DNA of 64,000 bases from Haliotis asinina (Eukaryota), in NCBI RefSeq assembly GCF_037392515.1, contig NC_090285.1, forward strand, positions 70,653,515 through 70,717,514, in the 5' to 3' direction. The notes beneath the pieces were generated by a model. It was not told the DNA's origin and did no database searches. It saw only the letters and a list, made by a program, of their open reading frames with translations. The translations under genes were made by a program, and so were the position numbers. Positions 298 to 26,672 of the stretch are shown in pieces. Within the stretch, counting starts at the first letter, position 1, and every line of letters begins with the position of its first letter.

Positions 298-1194
298 ATA
301 AATAGAGATTAATAGTTTGTGCAATGATGAAGAGTGAAGCTTAACAGCAAATCTGCCCACTGCCTGCCTGTACTGGTTTATATCAACCGTCATCAATAAT
401 CACATAATATATATATGTGACAGAGGCAGTGAGTGTCAACGAAAGGACATGCATATATAAACCAGTCATTTGGTAAATCCAAAAATTCACAATTATGGAA
501 TCATAATGTTCATTTCTTGTTTCAGCTTTAAACCACAGGATAAATTGAGACAACAAACTAAAAAACAAAACAAACAATAACCTAGTCATGTGTGGTAAAA
601 GAAAAATACCAAGAAAACTTTGGGTATTCATAAACAGCAACAAATTATGGAGTGATTACTTACCAAAATATATTCAAAACGATCAATATGCAACTATAAG
701 GTATCAGATGTATAGTATATGCACATACATGACTGTTGTATGTAGAACAGTCGCAAAAACATCTATAACACTTACCGTCATTGATCACTCCTTCGTGGTA
801 AGTTTCACTAATTTTAACACGGAAGGTATTTTATATATAAATAAACGTCGATGTATTTTGAGCGAAAAGTTAAAAGAAAATTTGCTGTCCAACTATAGCA
901 ATATGTACCATGAGTCATTTACGTGTGGAAGACGAATACCACTTTCTATTAGCATGTCCATTCTACCATACAAATAGGATGCAGTTTATACCTGGGTGTT
1001 ATCATGCGAGTCTATCTGTTCTTAGGTTTAAGCAGTTTTTATGCATAAAATACAAAATATTATCAAAAGCCAAAGGAATCTATTTGAAGATACACTTACC
1101 TGTTTGACTGTTTTATACTGATGTACTATACTCCTGAATATGTATTGGATGCGCACAACAAAGAATTGTGCATATTTTGTACTCTGAATCACGT

Positions 1195-11431: not shown

Positions 11432-11788
11432 AGAGTATAGAGTATCAGTGCAATGGAGTATAGAGTATCCGTGCAATGGAGTAATGAGTATCAGTGCAAT
11501 GGAGTATGGAGTAATGAGTATCAGTGCAATGGAGTATAGAGTATCAGTGCAATGGAGTATGGAGTATAGAGTACCAGTGTAATAAAGTATAGAGTATCAG
11601 TGCAATGGAGTATAGAGTATCAGTGCAATGGAGTATAGAGTATCAGTGCAATAGAGTATAGAGTATCAGTGCAATAAAGTATAGAGTATTAGTACAATGG
11701 AGTATAGAGTATCAGTGCAATAAAGTATAGAGTATTAGTGCAGTGGACTGAAGAGTATCAGCGCAATAAAGTATAGAGTATCAGTGTG
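11432..11788. repeat. Minisatellite, ~27-28 bp unit (agtatagagtatcagtgcaatggagtat), ~13 copies
   Basis: Directly visible tandem repetition. Confidence 0.85.
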
Positions 11789-12522
11789 ATTGAATTATTC
11801 CATCATCATCATCTCTTGTGTTCTCATATTATCGTGGCAGAAAGTTTGAGTATTGTAAGTAAAATACTGACAGTGTATGGCCTGATCTAGGATATAAACA
11901 AGCTGTAACTCAGTGTACGTGTATGTTTGCATCTTGTTGTGTTATGTAATCAAGTTGTAAGTCATAACACTAAATCCATATTTAATCTTTGCAGGTGTTA
12001 GAGACCTTGAGTAAATCTAGCTTTGTAGTTACCTGCTTTATGGTTTAAACAAGGGATCAGGTGGATTGTATTATTTAGGCAAGTTTAGCTAAACTATAGG
12101 CCTCGTTGTGACTTAGACTTGTGGCCCTTAGATGCTTTAAAGAGAAAATTCTCATTTGGTGTTGAGCAGAGCGGAACTGTTACTCTGGTATTTGAAATAT
12201 TCGTGTGTACAATATGCTGGCCTGCTGTAATGTGGGTTGATAGTGTAACATGATGTTGCTGATAGTGAAACAGACATGGATCTGTGATTCCTTGTTGTTT
12301 GTTGTGTTTTCACTATTCCAGTAAACCCAGCATGTCAAACCCGAAATCATCGTCATGTATTGTACCATGGTGTTATGATAGGTATCGAATCCTGACTCTG
12401 GGTTTGACAAACACATCTTAACCACTAGTTAAGCAGCCACACTGTATCAGACTTACTTCACCTCATTCAGTCACATGGAAATATATGAATTGGATATTGC
12501 CAACTCAGAAACAGCTTGTGCG

Positions 12523-12684
12523 CTACTGCAGCTCACCTTTACAAGTGTGTGTATAAATACAGTTATAACAACATGGGAGACTTTTTGTGGTATCTCTGTT
12601 ATACAAGGCCTTCTGTAGCTCACCTTTGTAACTGTAGGTATAGGTACAGTTATAACATCAGAAACTTTTTATGGTATCTGTGTT
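12523..12684. repeat. Host ~77-bp satellite, about two monomers, abutting the left end of the Polinton-like element
   Basis: Same monomer family (ctgcagtagctcaccttcacaactgtgtgtataggtacagttataacatgggagagtttgatggtatctgtgttacacaagg) as the array at 28307..28921 and the monomer at 26977..27062. Confidence 0.8.
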
Positions 12685-12988
12685 AGTAGTATAGGGAATG
12701 ATAGTTCTGGCTCACTTTCAAGAAATGTCTCTACAAAGCCTTATTTACTAAATAAGGCTTTGGTTGGGTCATTAGCTCTTGCTACTATTACCCCTACTAC
12801 AAAAAAGTTGGCGGTAATTACTGTGCCTTGGTAGGAGGTAACACTGTGCCGTACGGTACGATCAATAATTCTTCTCTTACAAATCCCCTACCCGGCCCAT
12901 CCCTCAAGTAGTATAAGTTAGGTTCGTCGGCTTTCATATCCACTTTATCTATGTTGTAAGTTTTGACTGACCATATAGGATCGGTGGC
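12685..12988. repeat. Left terminal inverted repeat of the Polinton-like element
   Basis: 100% identical to the reverse complement of 26673..26976. Confidence 0.9.
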
Positions 12989-13783
12989 TCGCTTACGGCT
13001 ATCGCCCTCGTGTTCCCCCGGCTGGTATAGATACCTCACTAGGGCCCTATCTGGTATTTGTTTCTCCTTCCCACGCAATGGAGCGGCCGACTCTGCAACT
13101 ATTGATTTTAGTTTGATAGCGTCTGCCGGTTTCTTACCGGTGAGACGGGTGACTTCATGGTTGATTGCCGACACCACCTTGGGTAACCTCGTGACCCATT
13201 CAGTCGATCGTTTTCCAGGGGTGGTCATCTCCCTAGCATACTGATAGCCGAACAAGCGCTCAGCCAAAGTCCTATTAAATCTCTCAACTATGGCTTGGCT
13301 GCGATGGGCTCCGGCCGTGCCACGCCTGACCTTTGTATCGTGTTTGGCTAGCAGTTGTGACACGGCACCCATGAACTCCCGTCCGGGGTCAACTTGCAGC
13401 TCTGTTGGCCACGTCAGTGGGCTGCGTTTGTATATGCGTTCAAATCCTCTGGCTACCTGGGCCGAATCTTTCGTGGTCAAGGGTTCGGCTTCCTTGTAAC
13501 GACTGGCTACATCCACTACGGTTAAGGCATACTTGTACCTCTTGTCGTGGGGTAGGAACAGTAGGTCTGCCTGGTGAATGCTATTAGGTATGTTAATACC
13601 GAACCTCCTAGGCACGTAGCGTGGTGCCGGTAAATAGATCTGCCACAGGGCTTGTTTTTTAAGCCACGCTTTGGCTTCCTCCGGGGGTACTCGCGCTAGT
13701 TTAGCTAGCTTATCTACTGCGCTAGCTCCTTTCCAGTACCCACGCGGGCTGTAGTAAATAGCCTCAAATTTTTTCATGTCCAT
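12818..13783 (-). CDS. Retroviral-type (rve, DDE) integrase, 321 aa. The C-terminal ~57 aa (SH3/chromo-like?) are encoded inside the TIR.
   Basis: Catalytic signature in the ORF: HQADLLFL (D), TVVDVASRY (D), and the canonical ERFNRTL motif (E) in AIVERFNRTLAERL. Confidence 0.9.
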   Translation of the reverse strand: MDMKKFEAIYYSPRGYWKGASAVDKLAKLARVPPEEAKAWLKKQALWQIYLPAPRYVPRRFGINIPNSIHQADLLFLPHDKRYKYALTVVDVASRYKEAEPLTTKDSAQVARGFERIYKRSPLTWPTELQVDPGREFMGAVSQLLAKHDTKVRRGTAGAHRSQAIVERFNRTLAERLFGYQYAREMTTPGKRSTEWVTRLPKVVSAINHEVTRLTGKKPADAIKLKSIVAESAAPLRGKEKQIPDRALVRYLYQPGEHEGDSRKRATDPIWSVKTYNIDKVDMKADEPNLYYLRDGPGRGFVREELLIVPYGTVLPPTKAQ

Positions 13784-16700
13784 ACGCGTATGTGTTTATA
13801 CCATCAATAGCTATCCAACGTTTCGTGTCCATAGGCGATAGGGACGTCTTGTTTATAGTCAGTCCGTATATCTTATGCCCATCACTTCTAAGTGTGTTCA
13901 TTTTATGTCTAAAGGTACGGGTCTTGAACAGGGCTTCCTTGAATCTGGCGTGTTTGATGTGTTGTTTCACCACATACTTAACCCCCTTAGCCTTCCGGAT
14001 CTCACTATTGTCGGCTTTCAGTATGGAGTACATCTTAGGTCTCAAACCTATGTACTCGGCTATGGGCGTGCCAGCACACTCGTCCTTCATCTTACCTAGG
14101 ACCTTTTTATTTACCGTACTGTGTAGGGCATGGGTCTTAGGGTAGTCGCTGGTGTCGTATAAATCGAGGTGTTTTTTCATGTCCTCGTACACGTCCTCGG
14201 TTCGAATCTCCATCAGCAGGGAATCCGTGTCAGTGTACAGCACTTCACACCTGTCACCGTACTGTTTCTTGAGCTCGTTGTAGTAAAAGTCGTACATCAG
14301 GTGTTTGGATAAATCGAGGATGCTCATCCCCACGTAAACAGGCCGGTTGAATTTTATGTGGCTTTTCTTCATGTGTAGGGCAACCAGGTTGTCTGTGAAT
14401 ATCTTACTACGGTTGAATGCCGGACTGGCTATCAATTTCCTGAGCTTGTCTTCCTCACTAGATCTAACCAGCTTCACGGTCACGCGTTTCCTCAGGTTCT
14501 CCATAGTCTTACCAAACACCGAGTTGTTCATGAGCTTGTAGAGATTTTTCTCAAAATCACTGGTGGCTTTTTTTCGTAGGTCTGTGTTCATTCTGATGTA
14601 GGGCTCCATCCATGGGCTCTGGTCGAACATGAGCACCCTGTGTATTTTGGTCAGCCTCATACCCAACGACAGGTACAGCTGTAGGTTGCGATAGTGAACG
14701 ATATACTTGGTCTTATTCATTAAGTTAGGCACGAGTTTTTCAACGTCTGTCACACGCCCACCTAACAAGTTATGTTGGTACTCAGACATCCAGTCTGTAT
14801 TAACCCTCATACGTTCGGGTGCAAGGGGATAGCTGTTGTGCGATGTGTGTAATTCCTTGGGATACTCTAAGTCAACTTCGAGGATATACCCTTTGTTCGA
14901 ATCTGGTGCAACCTCCATAACATCAACGTGGGGTACCCATTCGAATCCCCCTGTAGGTAGATACTGGCTCATGGCCCAGCCGTACAGGTTGTTTGCGTCG
15001 AGGTAGAGAATGTGATTGGTTGGTTTGTTAGGATCGTAACCTTTCACGTATTGATTATTTGCTTTAGCGTATCGTTTGGATGCCATGGAAATCCCACCTC
15101 GCAAGCCTTTCTCAATGAATAGGTGCATGTCGTAATCTGTGAGCAATTCCAAATTAACTCCGGTCTTTTTAAGCAAGGCGTCCCACGACAGACCTGGGCT
15201 GGTGTAATACCATGCGGGGTCGAGTTTATACTGCTTTAAACATGTCTGCCGAAACGTTTCAAACACGTCGGCTAACAGCAGTACATCTGTCCTCAAGTAC
15301 AGGTCGTGATAATCACCCAGGTTCTTACAACCCAGTTTATTCCATACGTTAGTCGCGTGCGAGTAATCATCTCGTGAGACGGACGCCTCATTCAGCTTGC
15401 TATAAAAGCAGTCAATAGGGGGTAGTCTGGTCTCGGTGAACTTGGCCCAACTATCCATGTACTCATAGGGGTACACACCCTTCCTCATAAGCAGGGGTCT
15501 AGTCTCGGCGTCTGTGTATCGATCGGTGATAGGGAAGGTATTGTTGGCCTTGACCAGACTGTCGAGTGACGACAGGAGGAACTGAAACGAGTCAATGAAC
15601 CTAAGTCCGTTTAAGCTGAAGGAGATGTATCTCTCCATGTTGTTGGGGATGCACGTTATATTACCATCGATTTTCGCGATGGCCTGCATGATCAAGTGTG
15701 AGTCGTACCCTCTCAAGTTGTGAAAGACAACGGGGATGTTTATTGTCTTAGGGTTGATTTTAAGCTTGAGGTTGCACGCGTTGTGAGCGGCGCCTCTATA
15801 CTTACCAGTTATGTGGCAGTGATCTCTCACCGAATCACCGTTAAGTGGTGAGTCGCACACGTGACAGTTAGTGCTACTAGCGTGAGCTAGCCTGTCGGCT
15901 CGGGTCATACGCATGGGAGCGATTCTATACAATGCATTCCTAATAATTTTTTCTTCCTCCTGCAAACACTTTAGAAACCTTTCAGCCGCGTCAGGGCCCC
16001 TATACACTACCGGAGCTTTCGTTTCCCCGTCACAACGGACGACAATGTATCCAAACGAACAGGCTTTATGCTCTTGTGTCTTGTGGGTGAAGCTACCACT
16101 GGGAGCCTCGCCGGCGGCAGCACTGGGGTGTGTGGGGGATTCCCCCACAACTAAGGCTTCGAAGTCGGCGTATATAATATAAGGTACAGACATTTGGTTC
16201 TTGTGGTTACTGAATTTTAGGATATTTTCACCTTCCTTAGGCATGTCGACTCGTATGGCCGTCTGCCCCACACCTTGGCAATCATCCCGGTGGGATTCTA
16301 ATAAATCAGCTCGACTGAAACCGTGTAGGCATCGTACACAAAAGTGTTTTTCCCCAACGTGTTTCGACTGGTCGTGCAACAACCGGCTGAGATGTTTTAT
16401 CCACGTGTAGTGATACTTTTCACCTCGCTGGATCATGAATATATTGATAACTTGGCGATCCTTCACCGGGCTGACCCTGTGTACTATTGTTGTGTTACCT
16501 TCGTGCCCAAAGACATTTATAGCCAGATTATTCTGTTTTTCTACTTTAGTGATCTGGGATATTGGGGTGGGTTCATCTATACCATCCCAATTAAGCCCAT
16601 CGTCTTGGGGATAGCTAGAAAGCCTATCTGAATTCTTGCCAGCTGGAAATAAGGCTGACCTGATAGCTAACCTCAGGCAATCGTTTCCTCTATTCTTAAC

Positions 16701-17504
16701 GTTTACTATGGCATGTTTGTTCCTATAGTAGGGAGGCAAGGCTAGGTATGACCCGCCTCTGAACGGCACGTAGTTAGCTATGTCTAGATAGACATTATCG
16801 ATTTTATCTACAGCCCACCCGGACCCCAAGTGTGTGTAGCGTTCTAGGTATTCTCGTATCTGCTGAAAACTGGTATCGATTGATGCGTCAATGGTCTCTG
16901 CATGTGTGACGACCTCTTGTTTACCTCGGAAGTAAGGCTGAACATACTCAGTGGTACTCCCAACCTGCTTATCGAGCGACATTTTCACTGTGATCTGAAA
17001 CTTGATACTTCCTAGGTTATTTAGTTCCTGGTTGATCTTATCAGCTATCAGAGGCTTGATATCTGTAATGTCTATGTTTCTATCAACGCGCATGCGCCAA
17101 CCTCTCAAATAATTGCCTACGGCGTGCTCAGTGCGCACGAACTGTAGGTCAATAGCTCTATTCTGTCGTAATAATTCTATAAGCTGTGGTTTTCTCATAC
17201 GGGAATACCCGCCTAAACCCAAATCGTGTGCCTCGACTTTCAGTTGTTTTACAGTGGGAGGTTTTGCTACGGGGGCATGTGATAACAATGCGGTTAACCC
17301 GGCTCTCCCCAGGTTTGAATAACCCGTGTATCCAAGCTGTTTTGCTTGAGCTTTTAATTGTTTTATTGTAGGAGGGGCTTCTAAACCTAGTAATCTCAAC
17401 AATGCTGACTTCCGCATTCTAGAATACCCGATGACACCTCTCTGTTTTGCGACCCGCTTGAGCTCGCTTACAGTAGACATCGTGTTTACACCTAAGAGAA
17501 CCAA
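13764..17504 (-). CDS. Protein-primed family-B DNA polymerase (pPolB), 1246 aa. It carries three N-terminal HeH/Rho_N-like repeats and a Cys/His Zn-finger-like segment before the exonuclease domain.
   Basis: Exo I YIIYADFEALV. PolB motif A LYLDANNLYGWAMSQ (= Dx2SLYPS class). Motif C VLYTDTDSL (= YxDTDS). N-terminus ELKRVAKQRGVIGYSRMRKSALLRLL / QLKAQAKQLGYTGYSNLGRAGLTALL / QLKVEAHDLGLGGYSRMRKPQLIELL. The ORF overlaps the integrase ORF by 20 nt. Confidence 0.92.
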   Translation of the reverse strand: MVLLGVNTMSTVSELKRVAKQRGVIGYSRMRKSALLRLLGLEAPPTIKQLKAQAKQLGYTGYSNLGRAGLTALLSHAPVAKPPTVKQLKVEAHDLGLGGYSRMRKPQLIELLRQNRAIDLQFVRTEHAVGNYLRGWRMRVDRNIDITDIKPLIADKINQELNNLGSIKFQITVKMSLDKQVGSTTEYVQPYFRGKQEVVTHAETIDASIDTSFQQIREYLERYTHLGSGWAVDKIDNVYLDIANYVPFRGGSYLALPPYYRNKHAIVNVKNRGNDCLRLAIRSALFPAGKNSDRLSSYPQDDGLNWDGIDEPTPISQITKVEKQNNLAINVFGHEGNTTIVHRVSPVKDRQVINIFMIQRGEKYHYTWIKHLSRLLHDQSKHVGEKHFCVRCLHGFSRADLLESHRDDCQGVGQTAIRVDMPKEGENILKFSNHKNQMSVPYIIYADFEALVVGESPTHPSAAAGEAPSGSFTHKTQEHKACSFGYIVVRCDGETKAPVVYRGPDAAERFLKCLQEEEKIIRNALYRIAPMRMTRADRLAHASSTNCHVCDSPLNGDSVRDHCHITGKYRGAAHNACNLKLKINPKTINIPVVFHNLRGYDSHLIMQAIAKIDGNITCIPNNMERYISFSLNGLRFIDSFQFLLSSLDSLVKANNTFPITDRYTDAETRPLLMRKGVYPYEYMDSWAKFTETRLPPIDCFYSKLNEASVSRDDYSHATNVWNKLGCKNLGDYHDLYLRTDVLLLADVFETFRQTCLKQYKLDPAWYYTSPGLSWDALLKKTGVNLELLTDYDMHLFIEKGLRGGISMASKRYAKANNQYVKGYDPNKPTNHILYLDANNLYGWAMSQYLPTGGFEWVPHVDVMEVAPDSNKGYILEVDLEYPKELHTSHNSYPLAPERMRVNTDWMSEYQHNLLGGRVTDVEKLVPNLMNKTKYIVHYRNLQLYLSLGMRLTKIHRVLMFDQSPWMEPYIRMNTDLRKKATSDFEKNLYKLMNNSVFGKTMENLRKRVTVKLVRSSEEDKLRKLIASPAFNRSKIFTDNLVALHMKKSHIKFNRPVYVGMSILDLSKHLMYDFYYNELKKQYGDRCEVLYTDTDSLLMEIRTEDVYEDMKKHLDLYDTSDYPKTHALHSTVNKKVLGKMKDECAGTPIAEYIGLRPKMYSILKADNSEIRKAKGVKYVVKQHIKHARFKEALFKTRTFRHKMNTLRSDGHKIYGLTINKTSLSPMDTKRWIAIDGINTYAYGHEKI

Positions 17505-17538
17505 TGTCTAATTGGTTCACAGTAAGGGGAGGTAACCC

Positions 17539-17799
17539 TTAAGTGGCTATCTTGAGCAGTCGCCTACGTTCTTTTATGTAGCCTTTTTTATTCTCGTAGA
17601 TGAGTTGATGTCTGACTACGTTCGCTCCGTGAGCTTTACATAGACAGTAGTGTCCTTTAACCCCGATACCACACACAGAACACGTGTAGTTAGGACTTCC
17701 CATATGGAAACAACAGAACCCCTGATTCCTGCATTTCCTACCACAGGCCTCGGTCTTCCCCATAAGTATGTATTCGCATCGGTATGGAGCGGGTCTCAT
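17539..17799 (-). CDS. Small Cys-rich (probable zinc-binding) protein, 86 aa
   Basis: ORF has many paired Cys/His: CGRKC...CCFH...CSVC...HYCLCKAH. Same strand as the neighbouring genes. Confidence 0.4.
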   Translation of the reverse strand: MRPAPYRCEYILMGKTEACGRKCRNQGFCCFHMGSPNYTCSVCGIGVKGHYCLCKAHGANVVRHQLIYENKKGYIKERRRLLKIAT

Positions 17800-17818
17800 G
17801 TTTACTTATATAGGTATT

Positions 17819-18244
17819 TTAATTTAATTGCTTCGCAACCAACGCAGTAGCTGCTATACCCAACACTATGAAGCCCAGTTCACGATTCATTTGTCCCTTG
17901 GATGGTGTGTAGTACTGAGCGAGTGTGGGTTTATTGAGCGGTTCCAATTGTTTACCAGTTAGTAGATAGTATTCTTTCATTGCTTCATCGACATCGTTGA
18001 ATGTTTGAACGGCATGGTTTTCACGCTGGAGTTGTTCGTTAATAAAATCGATCCTCTGGAGGCGTTTTTTAGCGTACTCGGCCTGTGCTCTTTGTAATTT
18101 CTCAGTAGCGAGATCGTGTCGCTTCCTTTCTTCCTGTATTTCAGCCGCGTGATCATCTCGTAGTTTCGAGAAGAGGAAATTACTCCCGGAAAATGCCAGG
18201 GCATTCACTAACGCCCCACCGACCATCATAGCTATCGTGGCCAT
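17819..18244 (-). CDS. Hypothetical membrane protein, 141 aa. N-terminal TM (MATIAMMVGGALVNALAFSG), central coiled coil, C-terminal TM.
   Basis: ORF in the same transcriptional orientation as the rest of the left-arm gene block. The hydrophobic segments are readable in the translation. Confidence 0.4.
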   Translation of the reverse strand: MATIAMMVGGALVNALAFSGSNFLFSKLRDDHAAEIQEERKRHDLATEKLQRAQAEYAKKRLQRIDFINEQLQRENHAVQTFNDVDEAMKEYYLLTGKQLEPLNKPTLAQYYTPSKGQMNRELGFIVLGIAATALVAKQLN

Positions 18245-18252
18245 CCCTATAT

Positions 18253-18480
18253 TTATTTCATTATATTATCAGGTATTATTCCTTGTTTTACTAGGATGTC
18301 TTTTGTGGCCATCGCCATACCAAGGTTCATTATGAGCATACCCATATCCTGCAGGTTGAAATCTAGCTTGATAGTTGGTTGTTTAAGCACCATTTTAGTC
18401 AACCGAGCGTACCCTACTGCTAGACTGGCTACCACTGTGGCGTGGTATACGTCGTTGACGAACGTTTTCCCCTCAGACAT
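18253..18480 (-). CDS. Hypothetical small protein, 75 aa
   Basis: ORF in the gene block, with an AT-rich region upstream of its start (18481..18510). Confidence 0.3.
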   Translation of the reverse strand: MSEGKTFVNDVYHATVVASLAVGYARLTKMVLKQPTIKLDFNLQDMGMLIMNLGMAMATKDILVKQGIIPDNIMK

Positions 18481-18506
18481 TATGTATATGATATAAAATA
18501 TTAAAA

Positions 18507-18818
18507 TTATAACATGATATGCGGGTCGACAGTGGGGCCTGCCGGCGGCGTGTGGGGTACCCCCACACCCCCAGGGTTTCCCTCAGTTCCCTCACGTGTA
18601 TATAACCATGTTATAACCACGGCAGCAGTTACACCTACAGCCAACAACAGTCGGGTTGGGTTGGCCGCTTTATGTTGGTTACACCACCGTTTTTTACCGG
18701 CAGCTACTCTCTTAGGATTCTTCTGCCTGGTTACTGTTGGGGGTACCCCCACTGGTGTCACTGGTTCCTGTGAAGGGGTCTCCTCCACTGTTTCCACTGG
18801 TTCCTGTGCAGCATCCAT
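18507..18818 (-). CDS. Hypothetical Pro-rich membrane protein, 103 aa. It overlaps the 3' end of the next ORF in another frame.
   Basis: ORF with a TM segment (LLLAVGVTAAVVITWLY) and a Pro/Gly/Thr linker (GVGVPHTPPAGPTV). Confidence 0.3.
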   Translation of the reverse strand: MDAAQEPVETVEETPSQEPVTPVGVPPTVTRQKNPKRVAAGKKRWCNQHKAANPTRLLLAVGVTAAVVITWLYTREGTEGNPGGVGVPHTPPAGPTVDPHIML

Positions 18819-19401
18819 CTATACTATTATTATTATTCTTTCTCTCAAATTGGCAATGTTTTGCTGTGATAATCGCCGCCGTCACTGGAGCCAACAACAT
18901 ACCATATTTGTGGTACAGCCCGCAGCTGATAGAGCTCACGGCGTGTTCGATAAAAGGGTCTTTCTCGAGGTCCTCCCACAGGTAAAGTCGGCGCTCTGGT
19001 GGAATGGGAAGGAAGTGTGATACAATACCGGTGTATATCTGGGTCATAGCCGATCCTATTGTCTTTGTCATTTCTGCTCCGAGCCGGGACTCGTATCTAG
19101 CGTATAGCTTATCGATTTCTTCGGCTGACATTTTGTGAATTTTATCCGGAGTGTAGTCTCCAAAATAATGTTTGGCTTTGCCGCCAACAGCCAACGCCAC
19201 CAGTTTCTCTCGCTTGGGGGAATCCCCCACAGTGGGGCCTGCCGGCGGCGTTGGGGAGACCCCCAACTGTTCGAGTAATTCCTCACACTCCATCTTATAA
19301 TATAACAAGTAAGATTTAGTTTTAACTATATAATACCCGATGCAGACAAAACACAGAGAAATGAAGGTTAAGTTGCACACGACAAATACTTCAAATATCA
19401 T
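18712..19401 (-). CDS. Hypothetical protein, 229 aa (an internal start at MECEELLEQ is possible). Contains the TPPAGPTV linker and a G/S/T-rich C-terminus.
   Basis: ORF in the gene block. No motif I recognise. Confidence 0.35.
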   Translation of the reverse strand: MIFEVFVVCNLTFISLCFVCIGYYIVKTKSYLLYYKMECEELLEQLGVSPTPPAGPTVGDSPKREKLVALAVGGKAKHYFGDYTPDKIHKMSAEEIDKLYARYESRLGAEMTKTIGSAMTQIYTGIVSHFLPIPPERRLYLWEDLEKDPFIEHAVSSISCGLYHKYGMLLAPVTAAIITAKHCQFERKNNNNSIDGCCTGTSGNSGGDPFTGTSDTSGGTPNSNQAEES

Positions 19402-19455
19402 AGCTATGCTTAGCTTTGCTTAGCTATGCTTAGCTTTGCTTAGCTTTGCTTAGCA
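19401..19455. repeat. 10-bp tandem repeat (TTAGCTTTGC / TTAGCTATGC, ~5.5 copies) in the intergenic region between the ATPase gene's 3' end and the next gene's start
   Basis: Directly visible: tagctatgcttagctttgcttagctatgcttagctttgcttagctttgcttagcat. Confidence 0.85.
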
Positions 19456-20055
19456 TACTATATATGCTACTGGTTGGTCGGTCTTTAGAACGAGCTTAGC
19501 GTGTTTAGTTTCAGCGAGCTGTTTCTTCACCCGTTCCCGTTCTAATTTACTCATCACATTGTTCTCTCTCAAACACTCCTCGAACGAATCCCTGTCCTTG
19601 CAGTGAAATAAGGCCACCCATCGCGTCTGCTCCCTGAGGTCTTTCAACACCGAGTTGAACTTCTGCGTTAGCACCCAGACGCTGTGATTTGCATGCCGGC
19701 CGGAGAAGGCCAGGTACGATAGCATGTCTCTCTTTTTTGTTATCTCGCGATTAGCGCTGCAGTCGTCCAGTATGAACAGCGTCGGTTCCCCTTTAAATTT
19801 CTCGTGAAGAGCTTTCAACCAGTCCTGCAGGCGTGTTCCAGGGTCGATTTTGTGTACGTCCGGGTCCGTCATCACCCAAGGTCGCGCGTACGTTTTATTC
19901 ATGCTCAGAGTAGGGCACATGATAACGATGTTATCGAACACATCCTTGTAGTAACCCTCCAACATATCCAACACGAAAACGGTCTTCCCACAGCCAGTCT
20001 GCCCGCACACTATGGCGCAGTGTGGGTCAGTGGGTAACCCCAGGGGGTACCCCCA
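19450..20055 (-). CDS. A32/FtsK-HerA-like DNA-packaging ATPase. It has no in-frame ATG upstream of the Walker A motif. The frame is open back to a TGA at 20056-20058, which is also the stop codon of the upstream ORF.
   Basis: Walker A GQTGCGKT. Walker B LFILDDCS. GRHANHSVWVLTQ resembles the poxvirus A32 GRHLNTSIILLCQ block. My own translation of the upstream region: TGA WGYPLGLPTDPHCAIVCGQTGCGKT. Confidence 0.8.
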   Translation of the reverse strand, partial: WGYPLGLPTDPHCAIVCGQTGCGKTVFVLDMLEGYYKDVFDNIVIMCPTLSMNKTYARPWVMTDPDVHKIDPGTRLQDWLKALHEKFKGEPTLFILDDCSANREITKKRDMLSYLAFSGRHANHSVWVLTQKFNSVLKDLREQTRWVALFHCKDRDSFEECLRENNVMSKLERERVKKQLAETKHAKLVLKTDQPVAYIVC

Positions 20056-21312
20056 TCAGTAGATGGCTTGCACGAATCTCCCATTGTCTATATTAAGTTG
20101 CGCGTCCATAATAACGTACAGATATAATTTCAACTTACCAGCGGTTTGAGCCTTCTTAGTAATCTGGATGGTTATCCCTTCGCTGCCGTTATCTATACGG
20201 CGCCCGCTACCGTGCAGTTTATCATCATCCGTGGATCGCATGTCCAACCATAGGGCGTACTTGGTGGTCAGGTATTCACCGATCTGCACGGAGCCGAGAT
20301 CCAGGTCCTTTGTTATGTAGTCCCCCACTGGTAGCTTTTTTATCTCATCCCACTGCTGGTGTGGTCTCATACCATGACTGAACAGCTGGTTGGGCACGCC
20401 CTCGATGGTAACTTCCACCTTTTCAATCTCGGGGTTGAAAAACTTCTCGCTGTCCCTCCGGAATGGATCGTAATCCTCCACGGGGACGACCAGGATACCT
20501 TTCATCGATCGCGCCGGCACGTTCAGGTTGATATTCCACACAGTGTCGCTCTTATCTCGCACGACTGATCTATGCCTCAGTACGCGATCGTACAGGATAG
20601 CCATCTTCCCAGAGTACTGGTTTCGAACCTGCCTGGCCAGCTCCGGGCTAGTGACCATGTCGAACTCCAGAGAGATGTTGTCTATGGCATAACTGGCCTC
20701 ATCACCGTTTGGTGTACGCACTACTTTGCTATAGTCGTTAAACGTGAGCTCGTATTCGAGCCTATCACCCAGCGCGGCCTGGTAAAACGGCGCGTGTCCC
20801 GTGAGCAACTCGAAGTCGAGCGGCACGCAGAATCGATTTCCGTATGCTCGAGCGATGGCCTTTTCACCGTCCGATAGCTTGTCTTGCTGGTCTGTCGTGA
20901 AGACGTATCCTATGCGCGCCCGGGTTGATTTGCTGATGCCCTGGTACACATCATTGACTCGTTCTCTCTCGCTTTTCCAGAGATCCTTGTAGCAGTGAAA
21001 CACGTCGCTGTCGTCGATGCTCAGCACCTCGTTACCGCTGATCTTGACGGTCGTTTTCTTGATGATAGCTCGACCCACGTTCCGCACTAGCTCGCGTTTG
21101 TCGTTGTCGGAGATCAACGTGATATTGAACGCCAGTCGAACAGTGCCTGGTACAATGAGGTCATTCTCACCAAGGTTTGGAAATCTAACCAGCAGAGTTT
21201 GATTCTGGTCTATCTTGCTGGGATTGTTGGTGATGGTCACCGACTGTCGCACGGCTCTGGCCCCTAATGGCTCTCTCAATCTTCTGAAAGGATCTAATTT
21301 TCTGCCGTACAT
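20056..21312 (-). CDS. Candidate jelly-roll capsid protein (putative major capsid protein), ~419 aa from MYGRKLDP
   Basis: Size and position (adjacent to the packaging ATPase) fit Polinton major capsid proteins. The N-terminal region is beta-strand-like (TLLVRFPNLGENDLIVPGTVRLAFNITLIS). I see no sequence motif that confirms it. Confidence 0.35.
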   Translation of the reverse strand: MYGRKLDPFRRLREPLGARAVRQSVTITNNPSKIDQNQTLLVRFPNLGENDLIVPGTVRLAFNITLISDNDKRELVRNVGRAIIKKTTVKISGNEVLSIDDSDVFHCYKDLWKSERERVNDVYQGISKSTRARIGYVFTTDQQDKLSDGEKAIARAYGNRFCVPLDFELLTGHAPFYQAALGDRLEYELTFNDYSKVVRTPNGDEASYAIDNISLEFDMVTSPELARQVRNQYSGKMAILYDRVLRHRSVVRDKSDTVWNINLNVPARSMKGILVVPVEDYDPFRRDSEKFFNPEIEKVEVTIEGVPNQLFSHGMRPHQQWDEIKKLPVGDYITKDLDLGSVQIGEYLTTKYALWLDMRSTDDDKLHGSGRRIDNGSEGITIQITKKAQTAGKLKLYLYVIMDAQLNIDNGRFVQAIY

Positions 21313-21344
21313 TGTTATATAAAAGAAATATATTTTTAATACTA
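21313..21344. promoter_or_regulatory. 32-bp AT-rich divergent intergenic region with a TATA-like element (ttatataaaag) between the capsid candidate (-) and the 396-aa gene (+)
   Basis: Start codons at 21310-12 (complement) and 21345. The sequence between them is tgttatataaaagaaatatatttttaatacta. Confidence 0.4.
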
Positions 21345-22502
21345 ATGGATGAAGACATAGATATGACGGAGATGCCGGGCGATAGTGCCCAGGCATTCGA
21401 TGAGCAGGAGACCTCATTTACTAGTTCACCATTGAACCAAGAACTCTTGGAAACAACGGTAAATGATTATTACGAAAGTTTAAGAAGAGATAAAAACTAC
21501 GTTGAACCACAGGGTCGATACCATAAGAATTTTTTTATTGATACAAAGGGTGTTCTACGCCTTAAGTCTGACCCAGGGGTTGACCTCTTTAACAAGAGCA
21601 ATAAAAAACCACTGGCCTTGTCAACTCTAGCCAGCCGCCATGGTGTCGAATTTATCCGTAAAAATCTAAACATGAATGATTACGGTGGTGCAATACCTAA
21701 GGCCGTTAAAGAAGATCTGCAAGCTACCAGATCCCACCTCACCACTAGAGATGAAATGACACCACAGCGTGCTACAGAAGCCTCGGACAGCATAGAAAAA
21801 CTGTTGAGCACCTACTGGGACAAACCGTTACCGGGGTTTGACTTTCCGGTAAGGGAACTGCGCGGCTTAGACGAAGCCGTGAAACGCGTGCGTGGAGAAC
21901 TCGTGAACAACATGGGGAAACTGAACGAAATCGACGAGCACATCGCTAGGGAAAAAACCAAACTCAACGAAACTGAAAACGATGATATGAAGCGTCGTAT
22001 CAATGAACGAATACGTGATTTAGAAGACGAGAGACGTACACGATTGGAAGCCGCTTCCTCGAATCGTGAACAGCTTCGATCCCAGATCAGTCGTATTCGG
22101 GAAACAATCGATAGAATACTGAATGAGGATACAACTTTAGCCAACAGGATTCGGATATTGTTCCGGGAGCAAGGGATCACCATCGCCAGTATTCTGACTG
22201 CATTGGGTTTCATCATATCAACCCTGGTGGTGTCACTGGTGGGAGGAACCCCCACACCTGCCGGCGGGGGAACTCCCACAGGCGGCGGGGTTAAAGACTG
22301 GATAAAAAAACTCGGGGAAGGCCTAGCTAAACTGGCTGGTAAAGCCGCCGAAGCCCTTCCCGGCATCCTGGGTAGCATCGTCTCGTGGTTGTTGGGCGCT
22401 CTGTCTAAAACTGCCATGTGGCTCAGTCAAAACCTGTGGGCAGCCATAGTCGCCGTGGTGGGTCTGGTGTACGTAGCGGCTAAGAAATCTTTAACCAAAT
22501 AA
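21345..22502 (+). CDS. Hypothetical 385-aa protein. Acidic N-terminus, long coiled coil, then a multi-pass hydrophobic C-terminus interrupted by a GGTPTPAGGGTPTGGG linker.
   Basis: Long ORF that starts at the first ATG after the AT-rich region. Heptad-like charged region (KLNEIDEHIAREKTKLNETENDDMKRRINERIRDLEDERRTRLEAASSNREQLRSQISRIRETIDRIL). Hydrophobic stretches (IASILTALGFIISTLVVSLVGG ... ILGSIVSWLLGAL ... LWAAIVAVVGLVYVAA). Confidence 0.45.
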   Translation: MDEDIDMTEMPGDSAQAFDEQETSFTSSPLNQELLETTVNDYYESLRRDKNYVEPQGRYHKNFFIDTKGVLRLKSDPGVDLFNKSNKKPLALSTLASRHGVEFIRKNLNMNDYGGAIPKAVKEDLQATRSHLTTRDEMTPQRATEASDSIEKLLSTYWDKPLPGFDFPVRELRGLDEAVKRVRGELVNNMGKLNEIDEHIAREKTKLNETENDDMKRRINERIRDLEDERRTRLEAASSNREQLRSQISRIRETIDRILNEDTTLANRIRILFREQGITIASILTALGFIISTLVVSLVGGTPTPAGGGTPTGGGVKDWIKKLGEGLAKLAGKAAEALPGILGSIVSWLLGALSKTAMWLSQNLWAAIVAVVGLVYVAAKKSLTK

Positions 22503-23691
22503 GTCCCAAAGTTACCCCACCAACCACCAGGGCTGTTTTATTATCGATGTGATTGGAGGCCTGAATATGGGGGTGTGTGGGGGGCACATGAACTTTAGGC
22601 TCCGGAGGTGGCGCCACTATACCCTTTTCACGTGGTGGGATGTGTGGGATATAGGGGGTGTTAATATCGGGGTTGATACCCAACTTTTGGTCCGCCGTGG
22701 CTATGACTATTTTGTTGTTATAACCCACCACTTTTTTTATTCTCAGTTGCATATCACTCGGAGCCATGTACAACCCCACGCCGAATACGTAATTGACTTT
22801 CGATCTGGCGTATTCTAACACGTTTTGGTAGCGTTCGATGGCCCGCGGGAGATCAACTGGAGAATTAATAGCATCCTCAACGTTGGCAACGAACTGTTTC
22901 TGAGCGTCGTAAGCAGTTCCCTTACCGATGATGTTGGAACGCGTTTGCGACTGCGCACCCAACAGCGCCCACACGTACGTTCGAATCGAGTCGTTCAAGC
23001 GTATTGTACCAGCACGAGTGAATCCTTTCGACGTGTCCAGCATGAACATTTTCCACCCGTCTGCGGTTGACTGCTCCACTTTCTGGACTGTGAAAGCAAC
23101 ACCACCTTTAAAGTTCATACGATCATCCCTCCATTCATTACTCGACAAAGCAAAGTCCTGGCGTAGTATATCTCGTTTCAGTAAATCATCACTGACTTCT
23201 TTCACTGATCGCGCGCCATCATAAGGAATACCCAACCCGTGGTTCGGCCCCGGCAAACGCCAATCCGTCTTCGGGTTTATTTCGAATTCATTGCAAATAC
23301 GTTCGTAGGCCCGTCTATCGTACGGGTTGTTTGTTGCGCCCCACGCTTTGTCCTGTGGGAGGGGGGCGCTGATCTCTTTAAGGATACGTCTGACCTGGTA
23401 GTACACGTGGAACTTGAACACAGACTGACTCAGCGGTCCACGCCGAGTGTCGGCCAATGTCACACCACACCCCGTTGTAGCGCACCACATGGCAAAGTTG
23501 AATTGATTCTGCCAGAACTGCATAGGGTTGTTGAACCAAGCGTGGACTGCCTTGATGTTAGTCACCGAAAGCTTATACTTATCGAACACATCCAAAAGCT
23601 GGGCATTGAAATACAACTCAGGAGCAACCACGATCTTCATGGGGGAGAAATCTACGTCCAGTTTAGGGTAAAACACACCAGGGGAATACAT
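22480..23691 (-). CDS. Hypothetical ~403-aa protein with a Pro-rich linker and a C-terminal TM anchor (TALVVGGVTLGLIWL). Alternative capsid candidate.
   Basis: Uninterrupted 1.25-kb ORF, whereas the opposite strand is fragmented. Convergent with the 385-aa gene (23-nt overlap). Confidence 0.4.
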   Translation of the reverse strand: MYSPGVFYPKLDVDFSPMKIVVAPELYFNAQLLDVFDKYKLSVTNIKAVHAWFNNPMQFWQNQFNFAMWCATTGCGVTLADTRRGPLSQSVFKFHVYYQVRRILKEISAPLPQDKAWGATNNPYDRRAYERICNEFEINPKTDWRLPGPNHGLGIPYDGARSVKEVSDDLLKRDILRQDFALSSNEWRDDRMNFKGGVAFTVQKVEQSTADGWKMFMLDTSKGFTRAGTIRLNDSIRTYVWALLGAQSQTRSNIIGKGTAYDAQKQFVANVEDAINSPVDLPRAIERYQNVLEYARSKVNYVFGVGLYMAPSDMQLRIKKVVGYNNKIVIATADQKLGINPDINTPYIPHIPPREKGIVAPPPEPKVHVPPTHPHIQASNHIDNKTALVVGGVTLGLIWLKIS

Positions 23692-23725
23692 TTTAAAACT
23701 ATTATATAATAAATATATATGTAAT
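23692..23725. promoter_or_regulatory. AT-rich divergent intergenic region with TATA-like elements between the 403-aa gene (-) and the 217-aa gene (+)
   Basis: ttttaaaactattatataataaatatatatgtaat lies between the two start codons. Confidence 0.4.
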
Positions 23726-24379
23726 ATGTACATAACACTTCCAGGAATAACGAGCGGTGAGGCCGTTCAGCTGACGCACGCGATCGATAACACGTCAGGT
23801 CAACTCGAAGTCGCACTCTGCGATATCACCTACCTACCGCAATGGACTAACATCAATATCAGCAACAATAAGCTGTTCGTCAGTGGAACTCGCAGCCAGA
23901 TAACTGACGGCTACTACAGTGTGTGCTCTCTAAACGACGAGGTCTTCAAACCCCTGGGAGCCGAACTCAAGATGAACGACTCAAACGGTACAGTGGTGTT
24001 AATCAACAACGGAAGAACCTCATTGAGGCTCGGCCGACCATTAGCGAGGATACTCGGTATGTCTCCTGACGAGATAAAACCAACAACAACCATCACAGGC
24101 ACGAAGTTACCCGACCTAGTACCGTACCGAGAGCTGTACATTCATCTCGGTCAGGTGAGCACAACGTATAACATTCAAGGAGGTCACCCTTCCACTATAC
24201 TGAGAGCAGTGCCGGTGAAAACTGAGAAATTCAACGACGGTAGAACCGAGTCGTTTTCACCACGGCAGTATAAGAGATTAACCCAGGGCAACATACCTGA
24301 GTTGACAATATCGGTGTTAGATATAAATCATAATCCTGTAAATATAGGATACCTCAGCTTAACGCTTCATGTAAAATGA
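23726..24379 (+). CDS. Hypothetical beta-rich 217-aa protein (possible minor capsid/penton-like protein)
   Basis: ORF with alternating hydrophobic beta-strand-like patterning. First of four tandem + strand ORFs with short (-4 to +10 nt) junctions. Confidence 0.35.
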   Translation: MYITLPGITSGEAVQLTHAIDNTSGQLEVALCDITYLPQWTNINISNNKLFVSGTRSQITDGYYSVCSLNDEVFKPLGAELKMNDSNGTVVLINNGRTSLRLGRPLARILGMSPDEIKPTTTITGTKLPDLVPYRELYIHLGQVSTTYNIQGGHPSTILRAVPVKTEKFNDGRTESFSPRQYKRLTQGNIPELTISVLDINHNPVNIGYLSLTLHVK

Positions 24380-25287
24380 CCAGCGCACAAGGGCCCGGAG
24401 TGAAAAAATGCGTCAATATCGGGATCTCCGACCTTGGAGACACGCGCGGTTTCGACGCTCCCGGAGTAGATGGTAAATCGTACGCCTTGCAACTGAAAAA
24501 CAACATTTACAAACGCGTTGAAATCCCCTCCGGTGGAACCCTAAGTGATATAGTAGATACCACAAGAGCAACAGTCAACACTAAGTACACCCTTGTCAAC
24601 ACCGGTGATAATAATTGGGTAATATACCCATCGTTCGGAGGTAAACTGTTCGACTTAGACGATGTTGAGAGCACTACCGTCGCCCGAAACAAGCCATATA
24701 TGCTCGTCTTCACCGAAGATGACAAGTGGGTGTTGTTACCCGATAACAACTGGTTTATCAATATTAGACTCGTCTCCCCCTACGTGTTCACTGATAACAA
24801 AGACAACCACCTAAACAAAGTCGTGAACAATGGAACCCTGCTCGTGGCTTACGTCCCAACTCAGAGACGTAGCATAGTCGTCAGCCCAGTCAACACTATA
24901 GCAGCCCACATGCTATCGAGTAAACCAGCCATACAAAACGTGAAATTGCAGTTGGTGTCTGAATTCGAAGGTGTGGTCACTATACTAGAGGATCTACCGG
25001 CAAACTCAACACTGATCATCAAAGTCTACCTAGGGGAACCATCGGGGAATGATGTCGAGATCGTGAAGGGGATCAAACTCGGGTGGGTGAAACGACACCA
25101 GTATCAAGTTTGCAACGTTTACGTGCGGGTGGGTGTCGACTCCAAGACCAGTCTGCAGGGGGTCAACGTGATCGTGGAAAACAAGATATCACTAATCAAT
25201 ATCTTCCTGCCTGACAACATACACTTCATGGGTATGAAGTTAACCCCTGAATTATTATCAGAAAACCAGTTGGAAATTATATCGTAA
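24376..25287 (+). CDS. Hypothetical 303-aa protein. Paralog of the next ORF; they share an N-terminal DLGDTxGFDxPG motif.
   Basis: MTS...DLGDTRGFDAPGVDGKSYALQLKNNIYKRVEI versus MTS...DLGDTEGFDQPGEEDELYILHFKDNVYRRVSL. C-terminal ...NQLEIIS versus ...RQLEIFS. Confidence 0.4.
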   Translation: MTSAQGPGVKKCVNIGISDLGDTRGFDAPGVDGKSYALQLKNNIYKRVEIPSGGTLSDIVDTTRATVNTKYTLVNTGDNNWVIYPSFGGKLFDLDDVESTTVARNKPYMLVFTEDDKWVLLPDNNWFINIRLVSPYVFTDNKDNHLNKVVNNGTLLVAYVPTQRRSIVVSPVNTIAAHMLSSKPAIQNVKLQLVSEFEGVVTILEDLPANSTLIIKVYLGEPSGNDVEIVKGIKLGWVKRHQYQVCNVYVRVGVDSKTSLQGVNVIVENKISLINIFLPDNIHFMGMKLTPELLSENQLEIIS

Positions 25288-25297
25288 TAGTATAATA

Positions 25298-26002
25298 ATG
25301 ACCAGTCATCATCCCAACACTACGCTTAACGACCTAGGAGATACGGAGGGATTCGATCAGCCTGGTGAGGAAGATGAATTATACATCCTGCACTTCAAAG
25401 ACAACGTGTACAGACGGGTGTCGTTATCAGATTTAAAAGAACCCAAATGGCTGATCAACTTAACAATCGCCTCACCTTATATCACAACAAAAGAGGGGTG
25501 GAAGTTTATCTCTAAGATTAGGAATAACGGTATCTGGCCCGGGGATTTCATTACGGGGAATGAAGCAACAGCCTCGGTATATTTTTATGAAGGAAAAATT
25601 GGATTAATTTCTGGAATAGAAAGTAAATTAACATTTAGCAGTATGTATTTACACGAAAGGCAGCTTGAGATATTCTCCCCCTACACAATCATCATAGAAG
25701 TCATCTTTACGTATTTTGACCAGGAAAACTCCTCGAAAGGACGTCAATTTTTACCCGGGGTGGTATTACACTGGTTTACCGAACACTTAGATCAATATTG
25801 CCGTATTGTTATACAACGGGATACCCCCACGGGTTCTATAAAACGTTTAATAAGCCTCCCTGGGGTTTTTATTACAACAGAAAAGTCTATTAGCCTCTCA
25901 CCAATTATCATTAGTTATGATCTATTCCTTATAGGCTTCAAATACATTGATAGACTATTAACTGAAACCCAATTAAAATATTTTTCAAAATATATATTAT
26001 AG
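25298..26002 (+). CDS. Hypothetical 234-aa protein, paralog of the 24376..25287 ORF
   Basis: See the paralog comparison above. Confidence 0.4.
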   Translation: MTSHHPNTTLNDLGDTEGFDQPGEEDELYILHFKDNVYRRVSLSDLKEPKWLINLTIASPYITTKEGWKFISKIRNNGIWPGDFITGNEATASVYFYEGKIGLISGIESKLTFSSMYLHERQLEIFSPYTIIIEVIFTYFDQENSSKGRQFLPGVVLHWFTEHLDQYCRIVIQRDTPTGSIKRLISLPGVFITTEKSISLSPIIISYDLFLIGFKYIDRLLTETQLKYFSKYIL

Positions 26003-26003
26003 G

Positions 26004-26621
26004 ATGGGTCTGTACCCAGTCGTAGAGGAAGTAGCGAAGACGCTGGAAACCGTAGATGGGTTCCGCTTGAGGCAGTTATGTGATGTGAAACGTCAACTAG
26101 AACAAGACCGTGACACGCGGAAAGCACTATGTAAAAAGTACAATAGAGCTTTCAATATCGTGGACGGGGTTGACACTACCCTTATGGCAACCAGCATGGG
26201 ACTAGGGGCGGCAGGTGTTGGATTGTTAGCTACCATCGTGGCTGCACCTATAGTGCTAGGTATTGAAATAACGGCTGGGGTGACAGGGTTGGTAGGGTTG
26301 GCGCTTAAGTTAGTATCACGCAGACTTAATCGTAAGGCATTGAAACACGACGAGATCAGGGTTCTGGCCGAAGCAAAGCTGAACACAGTGAGTGAGCGAA
26401 TTTCCACGGCACTCTCTGACAGTAAGATCTCAGAAGAGGAGTTTCGTTCAATCCTATCTGAACTCAAAAAATATAACGGAATGAAACAAGATATTCGGTC
26501 CAAGTCTCGTAAGTCTGCTATCAGCGAGGACGAGAAAAAAAAGTACATAGAACAGGGGATACAAAAAGCCCAGCAAGCCTTTATTATGAACACCAAAGAG
26601 ATCGTAGGCGGTTCACGTTAA
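26004..26621 (+). CDS. Hypothetical 205-aa membrane protein with a coiled coil. Ends ...EIVGGSR.
   Basis: ORF. Hydrophobic core (LMATSMGLGAAGVGLLATIVAAPIVLGIEITAGVTGLVGLAL) followed by a charged helical region. Confidence 0.4.
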   Translation: MGLYPVVEEVAKTLETVDGFRLRQLCDVKRQLEQDRDTRKALCKKYNRAFNIVDGVDTTLMATSMGLGAAGVGLLATIVAAPIVLGIEITAGVTGLVGLALKLVSRRLNRKALKHDEIRVLAEAKLNTVSERISTALSDSKISEEEFRSILSELKKYNGMKQDIRSKSRKSAISEDEKKKYIEQGIQKAQQAFIMNTKEIVGGSR

Positions 26622-26672
26622 ACTGTTTCATCGATATAAACATGACACAGGCACAGACGTTAAGTAGTAGGG

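Follow-up and report, generated by a model that had tools for sequence, protein, structure and literature searches.

Results

A complete Polinton/Maverick element inserted in a satellite

We analysed a 64,000-nt stretch of the Haliotis asinina genome (GCF_037392515.1, contig NC_090285.1, 70,653,515-70,717,514, forward strand), hereafter the window, and all positions given below are counted from its first nucleotide. On the basis of its terminal inverted repeats (TIRs), its gene set and an empty-site reconstruction, a complete Polinton/Maverick-type element of 14,292 bp, with every ORF intact, occupies positions 12685-26976. The host site is an 83-bp satellite; when the two flanks were joined through a single GTGTT, as present once in the satellite consensus at this point, they gave an unbroken alignment to the 83-bp units at 28307-28892. 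This match proves the borders at 12685 and 26976 as well as the 5-bp target-site duplication, GTGTT, whose left and right copies lie at 12680-12684 and 26977-26981. The tips of the element read AGTAGT...ACTACT, i.e. (AGT)2//(ACT)2. With an rve integrase, a family B DNA polymerase (PolB) recognized by homology, TIRs ending in these tips and a target duplication, the element is a Polinton/Maverick, of adintovirus-like type. Its intact ORFs, together with the perfect identity of its two arms, indicate either a recent insertion or a recent event, and the element is probably active. No other copy and no solo end of it was found in the 64-kb window; a tip-like string at 36311-36334, considered as a further copy, was discarded as a chance match (E=3.5).

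The left end is occupied by the integrase gene (12818-13783, minus strand), which encodes a 321-aa protein of the rve family (retroviral type; Pfam PF00665, E=2e-10, over the curated cut-off) and points outward, so that residues 266-321 and the stop codon fall within the TIR. Its start overlaps by 20 nt the 3' end of the PolB gene (13764-17504, minus strand), the product of which (1246 aa) is of the protein-primed type by homology: it is 57-68% identical to proteins with PF03175 (DNA_pol_B_2, the polinton-type PolB family), the polymerase itself giving no hmmscan match to PF03175 at E<=0.01, and its membership of the family rests on this homology. The only Pfam matches in its N-terminal half were Rho_N/SAP-like repeats and an Endonuclease_7-like segment. 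Further inward on the minus strand lie an A32-like packaging ATPase (19450-20010; PF04665, E=3e-8) and the major capsid protein (MCP; 20056-21312), with homologs at 60-66% identity, one of which, from the sea slug Elysia, carries the UniRef name 'Major capsid protein'. About eight further conserved ORFs lie between the arms, and Pfam identified neither a protease nor a minor capsid protein among the ORFs of the element. The terminal gene of the right end, p205 (26004-26621, plus strand; 35-61% identity in relatives), also faces outward, and a unique 51-nt spacer (26622-26672, plus strand), which has no counterpart at the left end, separates its stop codon from the right arm.

The 3' end of the integrase gene lies within the terminal repeat

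The left TIR arm (12685-12988, plus strand) and the right arm (26673-26976, minus strand) are perfectly complementary over their whole length (304/304), lie 13,684 nt apart and form the sole inverted repeat returned by a repeat search in 10-30 kb. The first 38 nt of the repeat occur at two sites only in the 64-kb window (0 expected). The left arm consists of 133 nt of non-coding sequence followed by the last 171 nt of the integrase ORF, the stop codon (12818-12820) being 133 nt from the left tip and the 171 nt corresponding to 56 codons plus the stop. A preliminary description of this DNA had placed the end of the integrase ORF at 12818 and the inner limit of the perfect repeat at 12988, with 171 nt of coding sequence inside it, all of which we confirmed. 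The perfect identity of the arms is in itself uninformative on constraint.

The outermost part of the repeat is the tip motif AGTAGTATAGGGAATGATAGTTCTGG (12685-12710, plus strand; mirrored at 26951-26976), which begins with (AGT)2. It is the sole part of the TIR common to the relatives L042, L047 and L013, which share AGTAGTATAG..AATG...GTTCTG with the window element over ~26 nt and show no similarity to it further inward. This outer ~26-nt tip is probably the site at which predicted integrase recognition and the predicted replication origin reside. More internally, still within the non-coding part, a palindrome with a perfect 14-bp stem (CAAAGCCTTATTTA-c-TAAATAAGGCTTTG, 12734-12762; mirrored at 26899-26927) contains AGTAAA/AATAAG hexamers on both strands, and its region has a stable predicted single-strand fold (z = -4.1). 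Since both terminal genes point outward, the repeat may provide their 3'-end signals, and this palindrome may be the predicted signal common to the two. The last 9 nt of the element recur as the string TATACTACT at 26746-54 and, in the left arm, at 12907-15; as a candidate signal this string was discarded, because it codes for the invariant L-Y-Y-L of the integrase.

The right arm holds a truncated copy of the integrase C-terminus

As the mirror image of the coding part of the left arm, the right arm contains an orphan copy of the integrase 3' end, codons 266-321 with the stop (26673-26843, plus strand), the translation of which (ATDPIWS...LPPTKAQ*) is identical to integrase residues 266-321. 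The identity of this duplicate had been correctly recognized in the preliminary description, and its length, given there as 57 aa plus stop, is 56 aa plus stop, i.e. 57 codons. Likewise, the absence of an in-frame ATG holds upstream of the fragment, where a TAA lies in its frame at 26661-63, and does not hold within it: an ATG that lies in frame inside the fragment (26724; the M of DKVDMKAD) opens a 39-aa ORF, and the ORF listing contains a GTG-started ORF of 41 aa at 26718-26843.

To place the fragment in the protein, we used an AlphaFold model of the integrase (pLDDT 66), which aligned with the full-length integrases of PFV, RSV and HIV over ~300 columns (Foldseek E=1e-9 to 2e-11) and which has a small beta-barrel at approximately residues 246-312. 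This agrees with the SH3/chromo-like C-terminal domain proposed earlier, except that the repeat does not contain the domain as a unit and cuts through it: it begins at residue 266, past the first barrel strand, so that the orphan lacks that strand and, as judged from the model, is not a complete domain. The integrase part that lies in the repeat (ATDPIWS...YYL.DGP.RGFVREELL.VP..T.LPP) was conserved in 30/30 aligned homologs. Thus, the C-terminus in the left arm is native and conserved and the right copy is truncated, which shows that copying went from left to right.

Gene order and repeat borders vary among relatives

We mapped 57 loci using the window proteins, and about 15 relatives, with 57-77% protein identity, were used for comparison. 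They derive from mollusc, cnidarian and nemertean data, and some of them are host contigs wrongly labelled as clam-symbiont MAGs. The collections searched held no record with the exact integrase sequence and no copy of the same family, the best identities being 73% for the integrase, 61-68% for PolB (77% over part of it) and 66% for the MCP. An MCP profile had no matches among IMG/VR viral contigs and retrieved one short irrelevant contig only from GTDB genome contigs.

Three arrangements were found at the polymerase end. The most common (type A; L003, L010, L012, L013, L025, L030, L043, L044, L046, L048 and L050) reads ...p141> INT> <POLB <p86 [tip], with an internal integrase gene whose 3' end overlaps that of PolB. 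The closest relatives, L042 and L047 (INT 73%, PolB 65-77%), form type B, ...p141> p86> POLB> <INT [tip], in which the integrase is terminal and inward-pointing, with its ATG ~174-190 nt and its 3' end >1 kb from the tip. Type C, ...p141> p86> POLB> INT> [tip], with a terminal, outward integrase, was found in the window element only. Overall, integrase and PolB are convergent (INT> <POLB) in ~13 relatives, the integrase being internal or, in L042 and L047, terminal and inward, and its 3' end faces the tip in the window element alone and in 0 of the sampled relatives. A helicase module takes the place of PolB in L002 and L049, and the integrase is absent from L005, L017 and L045. Had the integrase flipped along with its former 3' flank, part of the PolB C-terminus should still lie downstream of the integrase stop, but no such remnant was found there. 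The outward-facing arrangement, unique among the sampled relatives, may have a selected function. An integrase gene that faces the tip is a precondition for the overlap, since a repeat growing inward then reaches the 3' end of the integrase.

TIR extents in related elements were likewise variable: about 88 nt in L043, at least 131 nt in L013, about 155-165 nt in L047 (arms 88% identical), 208 nt in L002 (with a 5-bp target duplication, GAGGG) and at least 432 nt in L005, where the right arm ends at the contig end. The inner borders lie at arbitrary places. The repeat arms of the window element are identical over sequence that is unconserved among relatives and their inner border is of the variable kind, as is characteristic of TIRs made by copying of ends. 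Both arms could be read, at least in part, in seven elements (six relatives and the window element), and in two of these, the window element and L005, the TIR overlaps the 3' end of a terminal gene. The preliminary description, which called both of its explanations for the overlap unusual, therefore overstated the case, all the more as published Maverick TIRs span 46-1,447 bp (PMC8097293).

The second of these cases, L005 (Ga0209962_1000379), is a metagenomic element whose MCP and PolB are 63% and 62% identical to those of the window, and its contig begins at the tip, GTAGTAGTTAGC... The TIR covers the stop and the final 38 codons of its p205 homolog (314-937, minus strand), and the opposite end holds an orphan copy of exactly those codons (13102-13221). 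No direct repeat or tip-like motif was found at the novel junction of L005. The two elements are alike in that the 3' codons of a terminal, outward gene lie in the TIR and have an orphan at the far end; they differ in the gene affected, which in L005 encodes the p205 homolog and lies at the other end, and in the absence of an integrase from L005. The phenomenon thus recurs in the family, in this case involving another gene, another end and an element lacking integrase.

A repeated 10-mer brackets the copied stretch

The 10-mer GTAGTAGGGG straddles the inner border of the right arm (26664-26673, plus strand) and occurs a second time within that arm (26861-26870, plus strand), 17 nt past the orphan stop, so that the stretch derived from the integrase is exactly framed by the two copies at the right end. 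At the left end its complement, CCCCTACTAC (12791-12800, minus strand), is the proposed inner end of an older TIR of 116 nt. Interior 10-mers with such a local direct copy account for 0.32% of positions and, with offsets and the two borders allowed for, the bracketing has a chance value of ~0.02-0.04, which is of modest significance. This one 10-mer suggests a precursor with a 116-nt repeat, to which 187-188 nt were added by copying from the left end. Together with the preceding A, the copy at the border reads AGTAGTAGGGG and is tip-like (AGTAGTA-GGG); starting at 26663, it lies within 2 edits of the tip AGTAGTATAGGG, as do only 2 other independent non-tip sites in the element when both strands are considered.

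The novel junction itself (12988/12989 versus 26672/26673) showed no microhomology >1 nt. Simple panhandle priming at this place is thus not supported.

Discussion

These data show that the 3' end of an intact, conserved integrase gene forms the inner part of a TIR in a complete Polinton/Maverick element, and that its truncated mirror copy was acquired from left to right. Of the two explanations put forward in the preliminary description, inward expansion of the TIR is the one that the comparison upholds, given that relatives share ~26 nt only, that their repeat borders vary, that L005 offers a parallel, that copying proceeded from left to right and that a 10-mer brackets the copied segment. 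We consider it likely that a one-way templated repair or regeneration of the right end extended the repeat and thereby generated a passive duplicate of the integrase tail.

According to this scenario, the TIR beyond its outer ~26 nt would be lineage-specific sequence, and copying of one end onto the other would keep the arms identical. The starting point would have been an older repeat of ~116 nt (12685-12800), comparable in length to those of relatives, with its inner end at GTAGTAGGGG. Its right arm would have been broken or truncated 10 nt inside the older repeat and, with the left end serving as template, synthesis would have run 187-188 nt beyond the old border, through the 17 nt 3' of the integrase gene, its stop and its last 56 codons. 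Rejoining of the newly made strand, with <=1 nt of homology, would then have left GTAGTAGGGG on either side of the new segment. Overshooting repair synthesis followed by end joining gives a duplicated stub of exactly the observed kind. The process might have taken place on a free linear genome, where protein-primed replication could have involved a switch of strands or the regeneration of an end through a panhandle, or in the chromosome, through break repair with the other arm as inverted template. The orphan would ride in the presumed 3' UTR of p205 and, as part of the same scenario, is likely a by-product devoid of function.

The other explanation raised in the preliminary description was that the terminal DNA bound by the integrase doubles as its own coding sequence. 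The C-terminal domain of the integrase would bind the subterminal repeat that encodes it, the overlap would be selected, and a second copy would be required for symmetric synapsis of both ends. The integrase does model as a retroviral-type enzyme with a C-terminal small beta-barrel, the C-terminal domain contacts the viral DNA ends in retroviral intasomes, and the two arms are identical across the coding part. However, the coding part occupies positions 134-304 counted from the tip, whereas conservation among relatives ends after ~26 nt; no integrase sequence is present in the repeats of relatives that have this tip motif and integrases at 60-73% identity; the closest of them, L042 and L047, have the integrase gene reversed and yet retain the tip motif; and the overlap in L005 involves a non-integrase gene in an element that encodes no integrase. 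We therefore regard such dual use as very improbable. A further alternative is expression of the orphan, either as an exon fused to p205 or as the 39-aa peptide, perhaps as a truncated integrase-domain regulator. The orphan shares the frame of p205, has the internal ATG at 26724, is preceded by AG dinucleotides at 26663-70 and is followed by poly(A)-signal-like hexamers in the TIR. Frame sharing has, however, a 1-in-3 probability by chance, and four in-frame stops separate p205 from the orphan; the candidate GT donors in frame near the p205 stop (26611 and 26617), with T at +3, are poor matches to GTRAGT, the genes of the element and of its relatives are all single uninterrupted ORFs, and the fragment lacks the first barrel strand, all of which makes its expression very improbable.

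A different origin of the right end is conceivable from the tip-like character of the junction, namely that the right 314 nt (26663-26976) are a tip-to-tip mini-derivative (AGTAGTAGGG...CCCTATACTACT), in which a broken-off left end acquired a second tip and was then fused or integrated beside the p205 end, the composite later transposing via its outermost tips. Consistently with this, the match of AGTAGTAGGGG to the tip within 2 edits is rare elsewhere in the element, and the minus-strand junction resembles an element 3' end joined to target (CCCTACTACT/TAACGT). Nevertheless, the 314-nt segment has no target duplication of its own (CGTTA versus GTGTT), no free mini-elements were found in the 64-kb window, several steps would be required, and GTAGTAGGGG is more simply accounted for as the inner end of the older TIR; we hold this origin to be unlikely. 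A related and broader possibility, to which we give a small, if slightly better, chance, is that recombination is active at the ends of animal Polintons, where the tip sequence would itself serve as a signal for breakage and joining. AGTAGTAGGGG, which lies exactly at the junction, would then be the trace of such a reaction, with the integrase or protein-primed initiation as its driving force; a broken-off end may have healed to give a tip-to-tip mini-replicon, or an end may have been captured. Models in which a single event both flipped the integrase and extended the repeat (tip-YYL inversion, copy-back synthesis, autointegration and one-ended integration) were considered as thought experiments only, and none reproduced the observed junctions. 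Finally, terminal repeats are a recognised source of assembly errors, and the right arm of L005 is cut at a contig end, so that collapsed or mis-joined reads from both ends might have shifted the repeat border. Against this, the arms lie in unique flanks, which when joined restore one continuous satellite unit and show a clean target duplication of 5 bp, and each inner junction has unique sequence on its two sides, which renders an artefact extremely improbable.

Templated end copying, the reading we favour, has practical consequences for annotation: the inner TIR border of a Polinton/Maverick is not a gene boundary, and a gene fragment that lacks a start at an element end is to be annotated as spill-over of the repeat rather than as a further exon, a pseudogene or a second integrase. 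With its intact ORFs, perfect repeats, proven target duplication and unusual outward integrase, the present element is a clean specimen for such studies. Moreover, the bracketing 10-mer predicts sister copies in which the repeat measures 116 nt and the junction reads U-GTAGTAGGGG-TAATAG, and precursor copies would have a right end of the form ...ACGTTAAGTAGTAGGGGTAATAGTAGC, without the integrase fragment. If precursor and product copies are both present in the host genome, they would constitute direct evidence for end regeneration in elements that have never been cultured. Were the tips themselves break-and-join signals, as in the recombination-zone possibility, this would explain integrase flipping, PolB/helicase swaps and the capture of gene 3' ends together, and would provide a concrete mechanism for the 'end-module turnover' of polinton-like viruses.

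Comparison with known systems

To our knowledge, Polinton replication has never been shown experimentally. In classic adenovirus end-regeneration experiments, one end was reportedly rebuilt from the other. For protein-primed inverted terminal repeats, panhandle formation and homology-restoring mechanisms are an established model, in which the two ends of a displaced strand pair, or related copying takes place, and the terminal repeats are restored or kept identical (PMC11886824). Adenovirus and PRD1 (PMC11886824) thus resemble the process proposed here, in that copying between the two ends keeps these identical and can restore or extend them; short repeats reiterated at the tips, which would permit jumping-back initiation, are a further feature in common with the window element. 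Unlike the TIR of the window element, adenovirus repeats are normally non-coding.

Gene content in terminal repeats is familiar from other replicons: in the repeats of poxviruses, other large DNA viruses and kalilo-type plasmids, inner borders move and whole or partial genes are duplicated. The TIRs of entomopoxviruses, for instance, contain genes (PMC11296320). Poxviruses and the fungal mitochondrial linear plasmids (kalilo) are replicons unrelated to the present one, and the likeness consists in gene fragments copied to the far end; kalilo-type plasmids have gene 5' ends in the repeat, whereas the window element has a 3' end, and poxvirus ends are hairpins rather than protein-capped. In the literature that we examined, which excluded the founding Polinton/Maverick papers, we found no description of a Polinton TIR overlapping integrase coding sequence.

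With animal Polintons/Mavericks (PMC8097293, PMC10748475), the window element has in common the rve integrase, the protein-primed-type PolB, the MCP and the A32-like ATPase, as well as a size of ~14 kb, a 5-6 bp target duplication, (AGT)2//(ACT)2 ends, also the end motif of vertebrate Mavericks (PMC8097293), and a TIR within the published ~46-1,500 bp. The class is generally marked by TIRs of about 50-1,500 bp that have 5'-AG...CT-3' tips, often (AGT)2, and by target duplications of 5-6(-8) bp, to all of which the window element conforms. It differs from them in that PolB and integrase are co-directional and that the integrase is outermost and outward-facing. Adintoviruses, or midsize eukaryotic linear dsDNA viruses (PMC8502044), are animal-associated and, like the window element, have ITR-bounded linear genomes that encode PolB and integrase, the window copy being integrated, not free. 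They also carry an adenovirus-like morphogenesis module, of which the MCP and the ATPase were recognized here, and the proposed group is further marked by an OTU-like domain at the PolB N-terminus and by an adenain-type protease. The overlap described here is most likely a by-product of repeat dynamics in this known class of elements, and not a new kind of system.

Gene orders at the polymerase end

Comparison of window 12818-17799 with the related loci L003, L012, L013, L042, L047 and others revealed, for this Polinton lineage, three gene orders at the polymerase end, involving the integrase (INT), the family B DNA polymerase (POLB) and the ORF p86 (> and <, gene direction; [tip], element end): type A, INT> <POLB <p86 [tip]; type B, p86> POLB> <INT [tip]; and type C, p86> POLB> INT> [tip], the last seen in the window only. 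Type B corresponds to type A with the whole three-gene block (p86, POLB and INT) inverted, and type C to type B with only the integrase turned round. The PolB stop and the integrase start overlap by 20 nt in the window.

The 9-mer found at the element tips (AGTAGTATA / TATACTACT) recurred inside the integrase coding region (window 12907-12915 and 26746-26754), 222 nt from each element end, where it forms the codons of an invariant Leu-Tyr-Tyr-Leu of the integrase; this internal occurrence is probably a coding coincidence.

Other ORFs and protein domains

The PolB N-terminus (gene at 13764-17504) gave two Rho_N/SAP-like matches, with three similar stretches (VxxLKxxAKxxGxxGYSxxxKxxL) visible there, and an Endonuclease_7-like segment lay in the N-terminal half of the protein, at residues 534-580. 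Among the relatives, this N-terminal Rho_N domain was confined to the closest ones, L042, L045 and L047. Two other ORFs of the element, p303 (24376-25287) and p234 (25298-26002), shared 24% identity over 200 aa, rising to 49% in an N-terminal 37-aa stretch (DLGDT.GFD.PG), and are tandem paralogs; one gene of this type is the usual number in relatives.

Outside the element, two neighbouring ORFs on the minus strand (window 33139-34511) carried a Tc3-type HTH (PF01498, E=1e-15), matched DDE_3 weakly, and together represent a degraded Tc1/mariner transposase.

Insertion site

The element was inserted into an 83-bp satellite, with seven copies (91% matches) at window 28307-28892 and partial units at 12516-12684 and 26977-27075; the duplicated target GTGTT sits within the satellite-unit motif GGTATCTGTGTTACACAAGG. 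A little upstream of the insertion site was a 23-bp minisatellite (ATGGAGTATAGAGTATCAGTGCA, ~12 copies, window 11506-11786).

Related elements with altered modules

L047, a complete type-B relative, had clear tips (1500, 15888), flanks (CTATA vs GGGTC) that gave no matching target duplication and an arm identity of only 88%; its insertion could be an old one, or one that has been rearranged. At L045:7310-7400, two tip-like TATACTACT motifs stood within ~30-70 nt past the PolB stop with no integrase after them; the major capsid protein and packaging ATPase genes were also missing, and L045 may therefore derive from a larger element by deletion and have a different end. Two otherwise collinear relatives (L002:15215-18779 and L049:11021-14785) had, in place of the PolB end module, a superfamily-1 helicase (AAA_30/AAA_19) protein, followed in L002 by an extra 500-aa ORF; this exchange exemplifies replication-module swapping at the element end. 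The integrase was wholly absent from L005 (1-13235, Ga0209962_1000379) and L017, in which PolB directly followed the ORF p141; L005, with a tip at the contig start and a TIR at least 432 nt long, resembles a linear genome in the free state. Integrase-less relatives thus coexist with integrating ones.
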